DNA of 64,000 nucleotides from Escherichia coli (lineage in GTDB: Bacteria > Pseudomonadota > Gammaproteobacteria > Enterobacterales > Enterobacteriaceae): the NCBI RefSeq assembly GCF_024502345.1, contig NZ_JALDNN010000001.1, one strand, 5' to 3'. A program made the position numbers and the translations under genes. Below the pieces are notes generated by a model. It did not search any database, was not told the origin of the DNA, and was given only the letters and a program-made list of their open reading frames with translations. How positions within the stretch are numbered: the stretch's first letter is position 1; each line of letters opens with the position of its first letter. Of the stretch, positions 1,671 through 64,000 are shown in pieces.

Positions 1671-3011
1671 ATGACGACACAATCCAGTCCTGTTATTACT
1701 GATATGAAAGTCATTCCGGTCGCCGGGCACGATAGCATGTTGCTTAATATTGGTGGGGCACATAACGCATATTTCACCCGCAATATTGTGGTACTCACCG
1801 ATAACGCCGGGCATACCGGCATTGGTGAAGCGCCGGGCGGAGAGGTGATTTATCAAACACTGGTCGATGCTATTCCGATGGTTCTGGGCCAGGAAGTTGC
1901 GCGCCTGAATAAAGTGGTTCAGCAGGTGCATAAAGGTAATCAGGCAGCCGATTTTGATACCTTCGGCAAAGGTGCCTGGACTTTTGAATTGCGCGTTAAT
2001 ACCGTGGCGGCGCTGGAAGCCGCCTTGCTTGACCTGCTAGGTAAGGCGCTGAATGTTCCGGTCTGCGAACTGTTGGGGCCAGGCAAGCAACGCGAGACTA
2101 TTACCGTCCTCGGTTATCTGTTTTATATCGGTGATCGGACCAAAACCGATCTTCCTTATCTGGAAAATACGCCGGGCAACCATGAGTGGTATCAGTTGCG
2201 CCATCAGAAAGCGATGAACAGCGAAGCCGTTGTGCGTCTGGCGGAAGCCTCACAGGATCGCTATGGCTTTAAAGATTTCAAACTTAAGGGCGGGGTGTTA
2301 CCTGGCGAGCAAGAAATCGACACTGTTCGTGCATTGAAGAAACGCTTCCCTGATGCGCGGATTACCGTTGATCCCAACGGTGCCTGGCTGCTTGATGAAG
2401 CCATTTCTCTATGCAAAGGGCTGAATGATGTTCTTACCTATGCCGAAGATCCATGCGGCGCAGAACAGGGTTTCTCCGGTCGTGAAGTTATGGCGGAGTT
2501 TCGGCGGGCGACCGGCTTGCCCGTCGCGACTAACATGATCGCCACCAACTGGCGCGAAATGGGTCATGCGGTGATGCTCAATGCGGTAGATATTCCACTT
2601 GCCGATCCGCACTTCTGGACGCTTTCCGGTGCAGTCCGTGTGGCGCAGCTTTGCGACGACTGGGGGCTGACCTGGGGCTGCCATTCTAATAACCATTTCG
2701 ATATCTCTCTGGCGATGTTTACCCATGTGGGCGCGGCGGCACCGGGTAATCCTACCGCTATCGATACCCACTGGATTTGGCAGGAGGGCGATTGTCGCCT
2801 GACCAAAAATCCGCTGGAGATTAAAAACGGAAAAATTGCCGTTCCTGATGCGCCCGGTCTGGGCGTGGAACTGGACTGGGAACAGGTACAAAAGGCACAT
2901 GAGGCCTATAAACGTCTGCCTGTCGGTGCGCGTAACGACGCAGGTCCGATGCAGTACCTGATCCCCGGCTGGACCTTTGACCGTAAACGTCCCGTTTTCG
3001 GCCGTCATTGA
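1671..3011 (+). CDS. gudX: glucarate dehydratase-related protein (enolase superfamily)
   Basis: 446-aa ORF, paralogous to the next ORF (shared N-terminal [10 protein letters not shown] and C-terminal [11 protein letters not shown] blocks); gene order. Confidence 0.85.
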
Positions 3012-3031
3012 TTCTGAAAAAGGACATAAAT

Positions 3032-4372
3032 ATGAGTTCTCAATTTACGACGCCTGTTGTTACTGAAATGCAGGTCATCCCGGTGGCGGGTCATGACAGT
3101 ATGCTGATGAATCTGAGTGGTGCACACGCACCGTTCTTTACGCGTAATATTGTGATTATCAAAGATAATTCTGGTCACACTGGCGTAGGGGAAATTCCCG
3201 GCGGCGAGAAAATCCGTAAAACGCTGGAAGATGCGATTCCGCTGGTGGTAGGTAAAACGCTGGGTGAATACAAAAACGTTCTGACGCTGGTGCGTAATAC
3301 TTTTGCCGATCGTGATGCTGGTGGGCGCGGTTTGCAGACATTTGATTTGCGTACCACTATTCATGTAGTTACCGGGATAGAAGCGGCAATGCTGGATCTG
3401 CTGGGGCAGCATCTGGGGGTAAACGTGGCATCCCTGCTGGGCGATGGTCAACAGCGTAGCGAAGTCGAAATGCTCGGTTATCTGTTCTTCGTCGGTGATC
3501 GCAAAGCCACACCGCTGCCGTATCAAAGCCAGCCGGATGACTCATGCGACTGGTATCGCCTGCGTCATGAAGAAGCGATGACGCCGGATGCGGTGGTGCG
3601 CCTGGCGGAAGCGGCGTATGAAAAATATGGCTTCAACGATTTCAAACTGAAAGGCGGTGTACTGGCCGGGGAAGAAGAGGCCGAGTCTATTGTGGCACTG
3701 GCGCAACGCTTCCCGCAGGCGCGTATTACGCTCGATCCTAACGGTGCCTGGTCGCTGAACGAAGCGATTAAAATTGGTAAATACCTGAAAGGGTCGCTGG
3801 CTTATGCAGAAGATCCGTGTGGTGCGGAGCAAGGTTTCTCCGGGCGTGAAGTGATGGCAGAGTTCCGTCGCGCAACTGGCCTGCCGACCGCAACCAATAT
3901 GATCGCCACCGACTGGCGGCAGATGGGCCATACGCTCTCCCTGCAATCCGTTGATATCCCGCTGGCGGATCCGCATTTCTGGACGATGCAAGGTTCGGTA
4001 CGTGTGGCGCAAATGTGCCATGAATTTGGCCTGACCTGGGGTTCACACTCAAACAACCACTTCGATATTTCCCTGGCGATGTTTACCCATGTTGCCGCCG
4101 CTGCACCGGGTAAAATCACCGCGATTGATACGCACTGGATTTGGCAGGAAGGCAATCAGCGCTTGACCAAAGAACCGTTTGAGATCAAAGGCGGTCTGGT
4201 TCAGGTGCCGGAAAAACCGGGGCTGGGTGTAGAAATCGATATGGATCAAGTGATGAAAGCCCATGAGCTGTATCAGAAACACGGGCTTGGCGCGCGTGAC
4301 GATGCGATGGGAATGCAGTATCTGATTCCTGGCTGGACGTTTGATAACAAGCGCCCGTGCATGGTGCGTTAA
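3032..4372 (+). CDS. gudD: glucarate dehydratase
   Basis: Start taken at internal ATG ([10 protein letters not shown]), giving 446 aa; enolase-superfamily motifs; the track ORF begins 24 nt upstream. Confidence 0.85.
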
Positions 4373-20975: not shown

Positions 20976-22253
20976 TTACTTGCTGCTAGCCATTGCGGGG
21001 GCGCTATCAGCAGTACGAATTTTTTGGAACAGCAAAAAGGTAAAGACAATCACCATGGCAAGCGCCGCCATTCCCATCAGCCACATATTGCGGTAGGCTT
21101 CTGCTGCGGGCAGGGTGTCTTGCCAGTGGCCGATAATCGGGTAAACGAAGACATCCGGCAGGAATCCAATCACCGAACAAATACCTACCGTGGTGCCCAT
21201 AATGTAAGACGGTGTTCTCGCTTCGCCAGGGCAGGCCCAGTACAGCCCGCGTGAGGCGTAACAGGTGAATCCCAGCAGTAAAATCAGGCCAATCCCCATC
21301 GCGACCGATTGCGGGTTAGAGTTCGTGACGAGCAGGGCAGTTAACGCCAGCAGGTCGAGTACGGAAAGGATTTGGATCACGCGGGTAGGGGATTTCACTT
21401 TACTGTAGGTGGTGATAATGCCGCCAAGTGGGCCGCACAGCGCGCGGAAGATTTTGTTGATCACAATCCCCATGTAGCTCGCTGCCACCAGCGACATGCC
21501 GTACATTTCGGTCAGATAGTTGGTGGAGTAACTCAGAATGGCGTAGATTGTGAAGACACCAAAAATCACCATGCTGCAATACCAGGTGGTGCTGATACGC
21601 AAAACGGCAAGGATGTCGCTAAGCTGGAATGACTGTTTTTCTTCGTTATTGGCACTGCGCAGGTTGTTGTTATCGCTAACAAAAAACCAGCACAGAATCC
21701 CCAACAAGATGTAAACCACACTGTAGATGATAATGACTGTTTTCAGGCTGGCGCTGTCATCCGGTGCAAAGCGAGAAAAGACCCACATGGTAAACACCGC
21801 CAGCGACATTACACCGACGCCGCGCAGCCCTTCCATCCAGCCCATAATTTTCCCTTGCTCACTATGATCGCCCAGCAACGAGGCGGCTTTAATCGACACC
21901 GACCACAGCATTAAAATCGTCGTTATCGCAAAGGCGACCTGAATACAGAGCATTACCCACAGCGGTGGATACGTTGCCATTAACAGACCCAGTAATCCGG
22001 TAATGATCATCGCGGAAGTAATCATTTTGCGGTGTGAAAATTTATCGGCAATAACGCCGCTGGGGGCATAAAGAATAATAGCCGCAATACCAAAGGTACT
22101 CATTATTAAACCTATCTCGGTATTGCTGAATCCCATAAATTTCGCCATGGGAATTTGATAAATATAACGTAAATAAGCCAGGTCAAAACTAACGCCGCCG
22201 CTAAAACTAATTATCGCGAGGGTTATCCAACGGCGATATGAGTTGTGTTGCAT
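20976..22253 (-). CDS. yqcE: MFS transporter
   Basis: 425-aa multi-pass hydrophobic ORF. Confidence 0.8.
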   Translation of the reverse strand: MQHNSYRRWITLAIISFSGGVSFDLAYLRYIYQIPMAKFMGFSNTEIGLIMSTFGIAAIILYAPSGVIADKFSHRKMITSAMIITGLLGLLMATYPPLWVMLCIQVAFAITTILMLWSVSIKAASLLGDHSEQGKIMGWMEGLRGVGVMSLAVFTMWVFSRFAPDDSASLKTVIIIYSVVYILLGILCWFFVSDNNNLRSANNEEKQSFQLSDILAVLRISTTWYCSMVIFGVFTIYAILSYSTNYLTEMYGMSLVAASYMGIVINKIFRALCGPLGGIITTYSKVKSPTRVIQILSVLDLLALTALLVTNSNPQSVAMGIGLILLLGFTCYASRGLYWACPGEARTPSYIMGTTVGICSVIGFLPDVFVYPIIGHWQDTLPAAEAYRNMWLMGMAALAMVIVFTFLLFQKIRTADSAPAMASSK

Positions 22254-22431
22254 ATCGTATTCCCATTTGTAATAGAAAAAAAAAAGAGAAAAGTAAGCCG
22301 CCCTTTCAGGTGGATTACTTTTCTCAGGTCTCTAGTAATTGCAATAAGAAATAACATGGAAAGCAGAGGTGTTGTGTGAGAGTAATCACGCTTCTGCTTT
22401 TTAAAACTATTTGACAATACGAATATCACAC

Positions 22432-59315: not shown

Positions 59316-61877
59316 TTACACCAGGCTCTTCAAGCGATAAATCCATTCCAGCGCCTGACGCGGAGTCAGTGAATCCGGGTCCAGGTTTTCCAGAGCTTCG
59401 ACCGCTGGCGAGGTTTCTTCCGGTACTGACAGCAAAGACATTTGCGTACCATCCACTTGCGTAGCGGCGGCGTTCGGCGAAATGCTTTCCAGCTCACGCA
59501 GTTTTTGCCGTGCGCGCTTAATCACCTCTTTTGGCACGCCTGCCAGAGCTGCAACCGCCAGGCCGTAGCTTTTGCTCGCCGCGCCATCCTGCACGCTATG
59601 CATAAAGGCAATGGTGTCTCCGTGCTCCAGCGCATCGAGATGCACGTTGGCGACGCCTTCCATTTTTTCCGGTAACTGGGTCAGCTCGAAATAGTGGGTA
59701 GCAAACAGCGTCAATGCCTTAATCTTATTCGCCAGATTTTCTGCGCACGCCCACGCCAGCGACAGACCATCGTAAGTGGACGTTCCACGCCCGATCTCAT
59801 CCATCAATACCAGACTGTACTCGGTGGCGTTATGTAAAATATTGGCGGTTTCGGTCATCTCCACCATAAAGGTTGAGCGCCCGGACGCCAGGTCATCTGC
59901 CGCGCCTACGCGGGTAAAGATGCGATCGATAGGTCCAATCTCGACTTTTTGTGCCGGTACATAGCTGCCGATGTAGGCCATCAGCGCAATCAGTGCGGTC
60001 TGGCGCATATAGGTACTTTTACCGCCCATGTTCGGACCGGTGATGATCAACATGCGGCGCTGCGGCGACAGATTCAGCGGGTTGGCGATAAATGGCTCAT
60101 TCAGTACTTGTTCAACTACCGGATGGCGACCTTCGGTAATGCGAATGCCCGGTTTATCAATGAAGGTCGGGCAGGTGTAGTTCAGGGTATAGGCCCGTTC
60201 CGCCAGGTTCACCAGCACGTCGAGTTCCGCCAGCGCGCTCGCGCTCTGTTGCAACGCTTCCAGATGCGGCAACAGCAGGTCGAACAACTCTTCATAAAGC
60301 TGTTTTTCCAGTGCCAGTGCTTTGCCTTTTGAGGTGAGAACTTTATCTTCGTACTCTTTTAGCTCTGGAATGATGTAGCGCTCGGCGTTTTTCAGCGTCT
60401 GGCGACGCATGTAGTTGATGGGTGCCAGATGGCTTTGCCCACGGCTGATTTGAATGTAGTAGCCGTGCACCGCATTAAAGCCAACTTTCAGCGTGTCCAG
60501 GCCGGTACGTTCACGCTCGCGGACTTCCAGACGCTCCAGATAATCGGTCGCGCCGTCAGCCAGCGCGCGCCACTCATCCAGCTCTTCGTTATAGCCCGAT
60601 GCGATAACACCACCGTCGCGTACCAGCACCGGCGGTGTGTCGATGATTGCTCGCTCCAGCAGATCGCGCAGCTCGGCAAACTCGCCCATCTTCTCACGTA
60701 GCGCCTGTACCGGTGCACTATCGACAGTTTCTAACTGCGCACGCAGCTCCGGCAGTTGCTGGAAAGCGTGGCTCATACGGGCCAGATCGCGTGGGCGAGC
60801 AGTTCGTAAAGCCAGACGTGCCAGAATACGTTCCAGGTCGCCGACCTGACGCAGTACCGGCTGTAGCCCGGCGGTGAAATCCTGCAATGCGCCAATAGTT
60901 TGCTGGCGCTCAAGCAACACGCGGGTATCGCGCACTGGCATATGCAGCCAGCGTTTCAGCATACGGCTGCCCATCGGCGTGACGGTGCAGTCGAGCACAG
61001 AAGCCAGCGTATTTTCCGCACCACTCGCCAGGTTCTGGGTGATTTCCAGATTACGACGCGTCGCGGCATCCATAATGATGCTGTCCTGCTCACGTTCCAT
61101 GGTGATGGAACGAATATGCGGCAGAGTCGTACGTTGGGTATCTTTCGCATACTGCAACAGACAACCGGCAGCACAAAGTCCGCGCGGCGCGTTCTCGACG
61201 CCAAAACCGACCAGATCGCGAGTGCCAAATTGTAGATTCAACTGCTGGCGCGCGGTGTCGATTTCAAACTCCCACAGCGGGCGACGGCGCAGGCCGCGAC
61301 GGCCTTCAATTAACGACATTTCAGCAAAATCTTCTGCATACAGCAGTTCCGCAGGATTAGTGCGTTGCAGTTCTGCCGCCATCGTTTCCCGGTCAGCCGG
61401 TTCGCTCAGGCGAAAACGACCGGAACTGATATCCAGCGTCGCGTAGCCGAAACCTTTGCTGTCCTGCCAGATAGCCGCCAGCAGGTTGTCCTGACGCTCC
61501 TGCAACAGGGCTTCATCGCTGATGGTGCCTGGCGTAACGATACGCACAACTTTGCGCTCAACCGGACCTTTGCTGGTCGCCGGATCGCCAATTTGTTCGC
61601 AGATGGCAACGGACTCGCCCTGATTCACCAGTTTGGCGAGGTAGTTTTCCACCGCATGGTAGGGAATCCCCGCCATCGGGATCGGCTCTCCCGCCGAAGC
61701 ACCGCGTTTGGTCAGTGAAATATCCAGCAGTTGCGACGCGCGTTTTGCGTCGTCATAAAACAGTTCATAAAAATCACCCATCCGGTAAAACAGCAGGATC
61801 TCGGGATGCTGGGCTTTCAGCTTGAGATACTGCTGCATCATGGGGGTGTGCGAGTCTAAATTTTCTATTATACTCAT
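59316..61877 (-). CDS. mutS: DNA mismatch repair protein MutS
   Basis: 853-aa ORF with Walker [10 protein letters not shown] and MutS domains. Confidence 0.97.
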
Positions 61878-62073
61878 CGGCTTGTGATGTCCATTCTCTT
61901 AATTTTTAATGAGTTAGTGGTTTTTATGGTTATCATTATGTTTCACGTTGTCTCATCGAATATCATGAAATCCTACATTTAAATGTAGGTTAAAGTGTAG
62001 CTTGCCAACCTATAGCTTGGTAAAATATGGGCACATACAGCACAACCTATATTTATGTTCATGACTGCATAAG

Positions 62074-63375
62074 GTGCATGATAACGGAGTCTTTATGGCA
62101 GGAAAACAAGAGGGAAAGCCACTTTCGTTTAAAGGGGTAGAAATGATGAAGCCAGGCGATAAAGATAAGGCTGATGTAGGCGAAAATCGTGGCTTACGTG
62201 TCTCCTGTGGTGCAACTGGTGTTAAGTCTTTTTTCTACCGTTACACAAGTCCTCTGACTGGCAAACTTGCTCAGGTTAAAATTGGTAACTTCCCGCAGAC
62301 TTCTCTCGCCGCTGCACGTCTTAAACTTCATGAATTAAAGCTCCTCCGGCAGGAAGGTCGGTGCCCTGCGTCAGAGCTTAAGCAAGATAAGCTCCAGCGT
62401 GCGATTGAAGCTGAACAGGCTAAGATCCCTGAATTGACCGTACAGGGATTAGTTGAACTGTATCTTACTGAACGTATTGAGGATCGTAAAACGAAGGACG
62501 GGAAGGTCATTCCCGGTGCCAGAAAACCGAAAGGACAGGCTGAGGTTCGTCGTACTCTCTATGGTGACGCTGTTAAAAGTTTAGGAACCCGGAATGCTGC
62601 TGAGATAACGCGCCAGGATGTTATTAATTTAATCAATGGCATTGTAGCTCGGGGCGCAACCGTACAGGCAGGGAATGTACTGAGAGAACTTTCACTCGCA
62701 TATGAATTTGCAATTGGACTTGGGCGCTTTGATGACAGTTTTGCGAATCCAGCGCTGTTAGCAAAATCTAGCTTACGACAGACCAGAATCAAGCTCACAA
62801 ATGGACGTGGAACACGAGTACTGAGTGAGGACGAGCTTGCAAAATTCCTTAAATGGCTACCGGGTTCGGCTTACACGCCAACGATCAAAAACGTGTTACG
62901 TCTGACTCTCTGGACCGGGTGTCGTACCGGTGAAGTCTGCAATATGGCATGGAAGGATGTTGATCTTGAAAAAGGCACCATTCATCTTAGAGAAACCAAG
63001 ACTGGAGTAGAGCGTTACGTTCAGTTATCGGATCAAGCGATCGACTTTCTCAAGGTTCTACGCCTTACCTCTGACAAATATCTATTCCCTTCACAAGCCA
63101 CTAAAAAGCCAATCCAGCAGAAGTATCTAACTGAAAACTCATGGCGTTTACGTGAAAGCGGTCAAATGCTTGATATACCTCATTGGACGCCGCATGATCT
63201 GCGTCGTACAGTACGAACGGGCTTATCTCGTTTGCAGTGTCCAAATGAGGTGGCTGAGGCCGTATTGGGGCATACACGAGGCGGTGTTGAAGGGATTTAT
63301 AATCTGTATAAGTATGATGCTGAGTGTAGGAAGTGGTTGCAGGTGTGGGCGGATTATTTAGATACTTTAACGTAA
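62074..63375 (+). CDS. int: tyrosine-type site-specific integrase (P4-like)
   Basis: N-terminal arm-binding pattern KPGDKDK...GLRV...RY; C-terminal catalytic HDLRRT and LGHTRGGVEGIYNLY; the true start may be a downstream Met. Confidence 0.85.
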   Translation: MHDNGVFMAGKQEGKPLSFKGVEMMKPGDKDKADVGENRGLRVSCGATGVKSFFYRYTSPLTGKLAQVKIGNFPQTSLAAARLKLHELKLLRQEGRCPASELKQDKLQRAIEAEQAKIPELTVQGLVELYLTERIEDRKTKDGKVIPGARKPKGQAEVRRTLYGDAVKSLGTRNAAEITRQDVINLINGIVARGATVQAGNVLRELSLAYEFAIGLGRFDDSFANPALLAKSSLRQTRIKLTNGRGTRVLSEDELAKFLKWLPGSAYTPTIKNVLRLTLWTGCRTGEVCNMAWKDVDLEKGTIHLRETKTGVERYVQLSDQAIDFLKVLRLTSDKYLFPSQATKKPIQQKYLTENSWRLRESGQMLDIPHWTPHDLRRTVRTGLSRLQCPNEVAEAVLGHTRGGVEGIYNLYKYDAECRKWLQVWADYLDTLT

Positions 63376-63445
63376 TTTGCCAATTAGATGTCCAATCATT
63401 TCGTTACATCAAAGTTGTGCTTAATTTTTATTTTATAAGGATAAT

Positions 63446-64000
63446 ATGGATATTTTTTCTGGAGAATCAATTCTTTCCCAAGTCCCTGATGTCAATCATT
63501 GGTTAGCTTCTTACGGCTTGAATTCAACTACATCAAGATATAGCAGATATATCTCTTATATTGATGCTTTTTTTGAGTCGAAAGATCCCACCTCATCTGA
63601 TGGAAGAGACAAATTTGATTTATTAACCAAGTCGTATGCAGAAATTATAGAAATAGTCAGCGTTAAAAAAGCGTTTGAACATGAAAGAAGCCCCGGATTT
63701 ATTGAGCGTTTAAGTAAGGTTGTTTCTGGAGTTGATCATGTTGGTATTAAAGAACCCAGTGAGCCAAGGAATTTTCTCTACGAATTACTTATGGCTGCCC
63801 GGCTAAAAAATGCTGGCTTTATTATTGATTTTGACCAAGGAACTGATGTTGTCGCATATGGATTTGGTCGTGCTATTTTCGTTGAATGTAAACGCACAAC
63901 ATCAATAAGAGGGTTCGAATCTAATTTCATTAAAGGTGGAAAGCAATTAGAGAGAAAGTTTAAGAGTACGAAACTTCCCCATTTTATGATTCGGGGATTT
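63446..64000 (+). CDS. hypothetical protein, 5' portion only (runs off the window)
   Basis: Open frame from ATG 63446 to the window end (185 codons, no stop), AT-rich; contains a D-x13-E-C-K stretch reminiscent of PD-(D/E)xK nucleases. Confidence 0.45.
   Translation, partial: MDIFSGESILSQVPDVNHWLASYGLNSTTSRYSRYISYIDAFFESKDPTSSDGRDKFDLLTKSYAEIIEIVSVKKAFEHERSPGFIERLSKVVSGVDHVGIKEPSEPRNFLYELLMAARLKNAGFIIDFDQGTDVVAYGFGRAIFVECKRTTSIRGFESNFIKGGKQLERKFKSTKLPHFMIRGF

Follow-up and report, generated by a model that had tools for sequence, protein, structure and literature searches.

A truncated open reading frame (ORF) at the right-hand edge of a 64,000-nucleotide stretch of Escherichia coli DNA (assembly GCF_024502345.1, contig NZ_JALDNN010000001.1; the whole stretch is called the window below) encodes the first part of a 294-residue protein that very probably has the fold and active site of the PD-(D/E)xK nucleases, because three independent lines, namely conservation, predicted topology and fold neighbours, agree on it. 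We propose that this protein is a stand-alone PD-(D/E)xK DNA endonuclease acting in defence, and give the full statement, defence role included, a probability of roughly 0.5. It belongs to a rare, unnamed family of about 300-residue proteins, whose gene is an autonomous module found on chromosomal islands, integrative and conjugative elements (ICEs) and integrons rather than a component of a conserved operon. The features of the gene that lie in the window are as follows.

63446–64000, plus strand: truncated gene, the first 185 codons of the 294-residue protein with a predicted PD-(D/E)xK fold (from the translation).
63446–63760, plus strand: N-terminal all-helical domain, residues 1–105 (helices 13–22, 31–43, 51–76 and 83–93 in the AlphaFold2 model).
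63761–64000, plus strand: start of the predicted nuclease core, which continues past the window (R108, E113, D134, E147–R150 and Q167).
63437–63441, plus strand: Shine-Dalgarno-like AAGGA, 4 nucleotides before the ATG at 63446 (read from the sequence).

An earlier sequence-only reading had described this ORF as starting at 63446 and running off the window after 185 codons, and its translation proved to be exact. The complete gene and its neighbours, including the gene content of the island that carries it, were recovered from E. coli ET490 (locus L001), in which the gene occupies positions 21447–22331 and has 294 codons; the product is WP_058690197.1, annotated as "hypothetical protein". The ORF had also been called much richer in AT than the flanking core genes, and this is borne out by G+C contents of 35.8% for the ORF, 46.7% for the upstream integrase gene, 52.4% for the left-hand core genes and 56.1% for mutS. 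The final 2 kb of the window are matched at 100% identity in four of the 5,426 complete E. coli genomes. The identical protein occurs on 590 contigs from Enterobacter, Citrobacter, Salmonella, Klebsiella and E. coli, and on all eight long contigs examined it follows the same integrase and adjoins mutS. No consensus sigma-70 promoter was seen on the plus strand in the 70-nucleotide gap between the integrase and the target gene, so that co-transcription with the integrase is possible. No paper that we found mentions the accession WP_058690197.1 or a mutS-adjacent hotspot.

The family was delimited at two depths. A word-indexed search of 5.8 billion proteins retrieved 22 homologue clusters, and an exhaustive phmmer search of 1.84 billion representatives retrieved 558 clusters at E ≤ 0.001, 108 of them at E ≤ 1e-10. 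Nearly all homologues are 280–310 residues long, and the family is distributed patchily across phyla, the gene being AT-rich relative to its host. No member was found in 50,697 phage genomes; one was found in 2.9 million viral contigs and two in 72,556 plasmids, both of them Alteromonas megaplasmids. Some members are longer (P0068, P0081, P0158, P0162, P0169 and P0228–P0230) and comprise a set of about 400–430 residues and one of 562; their extra regions contained no Pfam domain and gave only weak noise with PADLOC. The AFDB entry G8QIH1 from Azospira oryzae (584 residues, 39% identical) is by its description a "Peptidase U49" (Lit-type abortive-infection protease), which suggests a fusion.

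The sequence-only reading had rested its nuclease proposal on an Asp followed 13 residues later by E-C-K, and the peptide concerned, IIDFDQGTDVVAYGFGRAIFVECKR, is indeed present in the translation, with D134 (codon 63845–63847) 13 residues ahead of E147-C148-K149 (codons 63884–63892). In an alignment of 140 full-length homologues, reaching down to about 20% identity, R108, D134 and K149 are conserved in 100%, R31, Y35, E66, G95, E113 and Q167 in 99%, W19 and C148 in 97%, and R150 in 94%. Position 147 is Glu in 130 homologues (93%), Gln in eight (6%) and Ala in two. The neighbouring Asp residues of the same peptide are far less well kept (D128 in 56%, D130 in 37%). The motif D134...E147-C148-K149 is thus under strong selection, since its catalytic positions are conserved at 93–100% against 37–56% for the nearby Asp. 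A glutamate of the upstream helix that had escaped the sequence-only reading, E113 (codon 63782–63784), completes the canonical set E...D...(E/Q)xK; E147-C148-K149-R150 is encoded at 63884–63895 and Q167 at 63944–63946.

The AlphaFold2 model, built from the 22-sequence alignment, has a predicted local distance difference test score (pLDDT) of 89.4 and a predicted template modelling score (pTM) of 0.89. Its core shows an alpha-beta-beta-beta-alpha-beta topology, in which helix 106–122 carries E113, strand 135–139 is preceded by D134, strand 142–150 carries E147 and K149, and helix 154–174, with Q167, leads to strand 182–189 and further strands; the positions of the catalytic set thus agree with the predicted strands and with helix alpha1. 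The best structural matches of the core are all PD-(D/E)xK nucleases (AF1548, NucC, NucS, NgoMIV and McrC). Against PDB, Foldseek returned nothing at E ≤ 0.001, and none of the solved structures is similar over the full length of the protein; the weak top matches were once more to this superfamily, namely McrC, cap-snatching endonucleases, Nt.BspD6I, Cdn1, XisH, Hjc and HincII. The proposed PD-(D/E)xK fold has therefore stood up well, the motif being conserved in the 140 homologues and the model and fold search leading to nucleases and to no non-nuclease family. The modelled N-terminal domain has near-invariant residues of its own, W19, R31, Y35, E66 and G95.

The description of the protein as uncharacterised also holds. 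Neither the single sequence nor profiles of 22 and 123 sequences, searched with phmmer and hmmsearch, gave a significant match in Pfam, NCBIfam, PADLOC, PHROGs or the PDB sequences. Below the significance threshold, the Pfam matches that recurred among the 123 members were all to nuclease families, namely Mrr_cat (six members), PDDEXK_9 (five), HSDR_N (four) and Hjc (two). The query itself was not matched by Mrr_cat (PF04471), and the six members matched it at E 0.0036–0.1, none of them at E ≤ 0.001. The precomputed Pfam domain field is blank for all of the approximately 90 family members listed, and shows PF08878 for relatives of AbpA. The one name that the databases offer is that of A0AB37VE00 in UniRef and AFDB, a 100%-identical Enterobacter protein called "DUF1837 domain-containing protein" (HamA). 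On this entry and on several relatives the label is probably a propagated annotation error; it is doubtful because PF08878 and the PADLOC HamA models fail while a positive control matches.

The genomic contexts indicate that the gene travels alone. A shallower alignment was used to find related loci and gave 13 genome loci and one viral contig. When the neighbouring ORFs of 20 independent loci were clustered, the target family was the only one common to more than two of them, and the immediate neighbours are unrelated genes that differ from locus to locus. On the E. coli island, the three convergent hypothetical genes and the helix-turn-helix (HTH) gene have no PADLOC matches and do not travel with the family. 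Homologues elsewhere lie on a Clostridioides difficile ICE of the Tn916/Tcp type, adjoining ArdA; on an island with ArdC, RadC, GmrSD and two type I restriction-modification (R-M) systems; in Photobacterium, among hypothetical genes, insertion sequences and a group II intron; in a metagenome-assembled genome, between a DUF6414 gene and a pair consisting of a reverse transcriptase and a SLATT protein; and next to a DUF4238 candidate.

The homologues of gut Firmicutes adjoin a vanG-type cluster, and AbiE is found at a distance of 7 kb. In five such loci (L003–L006 and L028) the homologue stands directly upstream of VanR/VanS, a peptidase, a gene of the D-Ala-D-Ala ligase family and a membrane-bound racemase. 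Their vanG side is constant and their other flank variable, which suggests that they ride the same mobile resistance element.

A further context is that of a Vibrio cholerae homologue with 53% identity (contig ACAMGQ010000035.1, locus L040, gene at 2765–3649). This contig carries eight attC repeats of the V. cholerae repeat (VCR) type, and the gene lies between the repeat ends at 2746 and 3776, adjoined by toxin-antitoxin cassettes of the RelB/ParE (YafQ-type) kind. Because it stands between two consecutive VCR attC repeats, it forms a one-gene superintegron cassette (L040:2747–3776). In another Vibrio contig, from a metagenome, a SUKH/SMI1_KNR4 immunity-type gene (L037:7592–7984) ends 17 nucleotides before the homologue, which is there an N-terminally extended form of 327 residues; the SUKH gene is absent from the other Vibrio cassettes. 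A conserved partner or operon was sought by neighbour clustering over the 20 loci and by annotation of the immediate neighbours, and was rejected. The family is thus an autonomous module, since no partner recurs in the 20 loci and V. cholerae carries it as a one-gene cassette; on the same grounds, the earlier suggestion finds no support in so far as it makes the protein one part of a system of several genes for defence or abortive infection.

In the mechanism that we propose, the nuclease core would cut the DNA of invading phages or other mobile elements and would need neither a cognate methyltransferase nor a partner, presumably acting by metal-dependent catalysis through E113, D134 and (E/Q)147-x-K149. 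On the one hand, the N-terminal domain might allow cutting only at a feature absent from the host's own DNA, for instance a modified base, a free end or an intermediate of replication; on the other hand, it could hold the nuclease off until such a feature appears, its presumed role being sensing or substrate binding. Integrase islands, ICEs and integron cassettes carry the gene from genome to genome as a one-gene module. Some kind of defence role is plausible from the mobile-element contexts, which often include defence genes; the Septu and R-M genes on this E. coli island would fit it, as would the AFDB relative G8QIH1 with its apparent fusion to a Lit-type region. Single-gene integron cassettes with Mrr or PD-DExK domains (Epona, Divona, Damona and Shedu) give V. 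cholerae defence against phages (10.1101/2024.07.02.601686). A bolder version, which we hold only tentatively and consider doubtful as it stands, is that the family is a widespread one-gene immune nuclease whose helical N-terminal domain, with W19, R31, Y35 and E66, is a new sensor of a cue specific to phages or plasmids, such as modified DNA or DNA ends; it would then be a new defence system, compact enough to spread as an integron cassette and now and then fused to Lit-type proteases.

Several observations weigh against a defence nuclease. Only about six of the 20 loci have a recognised defence gene at a distance of up to about 8 kb, and several loci are housekeeping-like, with PlsB, a TonB receptor, a GNAT protein or a QueG-like protein as neighbours; the association with defence islands, judged by locus counts, is for these reasons only suggestive. 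The family is in none of the defence catalogues searched, PADLOC v2 giving no match even at E ≤ 10, and none of the described V. cholerae defence cassettes has this architecture; judged by description, the integron-cassette defence screens did not include the family. A nuclease that stood alone and was always active would be toxic, and a scan for promoters and terminators gave the target gene none of its own above shuffle expectation. Residues 1–105 are matched by no fold or profile and are unlike any known modified-base reader.

Among the other explanations, a role in the upkeep of mobile elements deserves the most attention, although we regard it as unlikely. The protein could be an excision or recombination factor resembling XisH, a structure-specific resolvase, or a factor that helps ICEs and islands to become established or to counter defences. 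Its place directly after the integrase in Enterobacterales (all eight long contigs examined) is what such a factor would lead one to expect, and ICE-like elements place the gene by the anti-restriction proteins ArdA and ArdC, an ArdC-like neighbour recurring in L025. In most loci, however, no integrase or recombinase adjoins the gene, and an integron cassette cannot serve the recombination of its carrier. Fourteen other E. coli genomes have related integrases (85–96% identity) at the same mutS site without the target gene, which shows that the integrase does not need it. XisH itself (the fdxN element excision controlling factor; PDB 2okf and 2inb) has only about 130 residues, contains nothing comparable to the N-terminal domain and acts together with XisI and XisF. 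A toxin is less probable again, whether as an abortive-infection effector or as an orphan nuclease of the polymorphic-toxin or contact-dependent inhibition type with its immunity protein or antitoxin nearby or elsewhere. The SUKH/SMI1_KNR4 gene in the Vibrio metagenome contig, the CbtA toxin remnants on the E. coli island and the relative that seems to be fused to a Lit-type abortive-infection protease speak for it, but the SUKH gene is confined to one context and missing from the V. cholerae cassettes seen elsewhere, the 20 loci have no small conserved neighbour in common, and the protein is uniformly about 300 residues long with no secretion or delivery domain. An abortive-infection effector overlaps with the defence endonuclease proposed here rather than contradicting it.

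The database name raises a further candidate, an orphan HamA (the DUF1837 effector nuclease of Hachiman) that lost or never had its HamB helicase, which we consider very improbable. HamA is likewise a D-ExK nuclease of similar size (PMC12278908), several whole-length structural neighbours in AFDB are labelled DUF1837 or HamA, and the identical protein in UniRef and AFDB bears the DUF1837 name, although this label was not reproduced. PF08878 matched neither the protein at E ≤ 10 nor any of 132 members (123 + 9) at E ≤ 0.1, whereas K-12 AbpA, the positive control, matched HamA at 5.9e-41 with the same Pfam library, so that the test itself works. The PADLOC HamA models were unmatched, and the hhalign probability was 0.5% for AbpA and 1.2% for a shallow HamA alignment of the AbpA type, which is catalytically inactive. 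HamA acts as a HamAB heterodimer with the Ski2-like helicase HamB (PMC12278908), and no helicase adjoins the family in any of the 20 loci. Membership of the HamA family was rejected, as PF08878, PADLOC and hhalign all failed despite a working control, the AbpA-type alignment being shallow. Least probable is an incidental motif in a non-catalytic or non-nuclease protein, or in an ORF that is not a real gene. A D-x13-ExK string is common by chance and no profile match was significant. Against this stand 558 homologue clusters of uniform length, catalytic positions kept at 93–100% beside neighbouring Asp at 37–56%, and a confident model with nuclease fold neighbours; inactive PD-(D/E)xK relatives such as the HamA domain of AbpA, moreover, have lost these residues (PMC12278908).

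The target gene is, as the sequence-only reading had stated, the first gene after the integrase of an island, a 19.7 kb insertion between mutS and ygbA that is bounded by a direct repeat. The features of the integration site in the window are the following.

62095–63375, plus strand: tyrosine integrase of the P4 type, 426 residues (annotation and Pfam).
59316–61877, minus strand: mutS, the core gene into whose 5′ end the island is inserted (ORF list and annotation).
61849–61886, no strand: attL-like left copy of an imperfect direct repeat (L001 19850–19887), covering the mutS start codon at 61877.

The integrase contains the Pfam domains Arm-DNA-bind_3, Phage_int_M and Phage_integrase (E-values 1.4e-24, 5.9e-11 and 6.7e-06, respectively), and Pfam MutS_I to MutS_V are found at the same position in other genomes. 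The right copy of the repeat lies outside the window at L001:39544–39581. In the repeat search, the two copies (family D1) span 38 nucleotides with 79% identity at a spacing of 19,694 nucleotides, and the identity continues about 10 nucleotides leftward (GCATCATGGG). What is repeated is the mutS 5′ end, and the insertion falls within the first approximately 14 codons of that gene. On the minus strand, the right-hand copy encodes MSAIENFDA, which we take to be the K-12 MutS N-terminus, and the copy attached to mutS encodes MSIIENLDS. The N-terminus supplied by the island thus differs from the displaced native one by A3I, F7L and A9S, and the upstream region is also replaced, which could alter the expression of mutS, a gene setting the mutation rate. 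The displaced native 5′ end of mutS remains at the far end of the island, and genomes of Enterobacter, Citrobacter and Salmonella show the same arrangement of mutS and island. Between mutS and the integrase (window 61972–61999) lies a perfect 18-bp palindrome, CCTACATTTAAATGTAGG, and the motif TGTAGGTTAAARTGTA recurs near both island ends, including L001:39457–39475 (repeat family D8); both are possible candidates for integrase or arm-binding sites.

The island looks composite, with two modules. The first, from L001:20096, comprises the integrase, the target gene, three small convergent hypothetical genes, the HTH gene, RadC, DUF2787, and a CbtA pseudogene with DUF905. A second integrase (L001:27381–28328) opens the other module, which carries AlpA, the type I R-M genes hsdM and hsdS, directly after them the Septu pair PtuA (2e-215) and PtuB (1e-99), and then Fic; the part with hsdM, hsdS, Septu and Fic lies at L001:32728–38404. 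No hsdR is annotated on the island.

The fold, the chemistry and solitary nuclease genes in defence are of kinds already known; what is new is an unnamed family, left unmodelled or mislabelled by the databases, whose N-terminal domain is distinctive and conserved and whose gene is strictly solitary. If the protein is indeed an autonomous defence nuclease, it would be a compact one-gene immune module of 0.9 kb with a sensor domain without described relatives, and at least 558 sequence clusters, a family that lies outside the domain and defence databases, would gain a name and a testable function. If it is merely an orphan restriction-like nuclease without a phenotype, little changes. The target makes a reasonable candidate for a one-gene defence system not yet described, and one that would not surprise a specialist. 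The correction of the DUF1837/HamA label matters in its own right, because that label would make annotators expect a missing helicase. The island is of interest on a second count, as it rewrites the first codons and the upstream region of mutS, whose expression level controls the mutation rate.

Among known systems, the nucleases NucC, Cap4, Can2 and Cdn1, effectors of cyclic-oligonucleotide-based antiphage signalling systems (CBASS) and of type III CRISPR (clustered regularly interspaced short palindromic repeats) systems, are unrelated to the target in its N-terminal domain, and no cyclase, CARF or SAVED was found in the protein or in the neighbour census of the 20 loci. Shedu (SduA, DUF4263), Epona, Divona and Damona are closer: they are one-gene systems that join a PD-(D/E)xK or Mrr-type nuclease to a variable N-terminal domain, as the target does, and such cassettes are frequent in integrons and islands, where the V. 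cholerae homologue likewise occurs as a one-gene cassette. The target differs from them in having no transmembrane or holin part and no match to DUF4263 (PF14082), DUF4365, DUF6602 or the PADLOC Shedu models. The type IV enzymes of the Mrr kind (Mrr_cat, PF04471), together with the Mrr-like AF1548 (PDB 1y88), are like the target solitary and without a methyltransferase, no conserved methyltransferase neighbour being found among the 20 loci. They share with it the core D...(E/Q)xK, including the alternation of Glu and Gln; Mrr_cat is the commonest sub-threshold Pfam match of the family (six of the 123 members, best 3.6e-3), and the labels Mrr and restriction endonuclease occur on several of the target's AFDB neighbours. 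The N-terminal domain of Mrr is a winged-helix DNA-binding domain, whereas that of the target is all-helical, without strands and family-specific, and the target family has its own invariant residues (W19, R31, Y35, E66, R108, C148 and Q167). Being solitary and mobile, with intact catalytic residues and neither methyltransferase nor partner, the protein would work most like the Mrr-type or Shedu-type systems.

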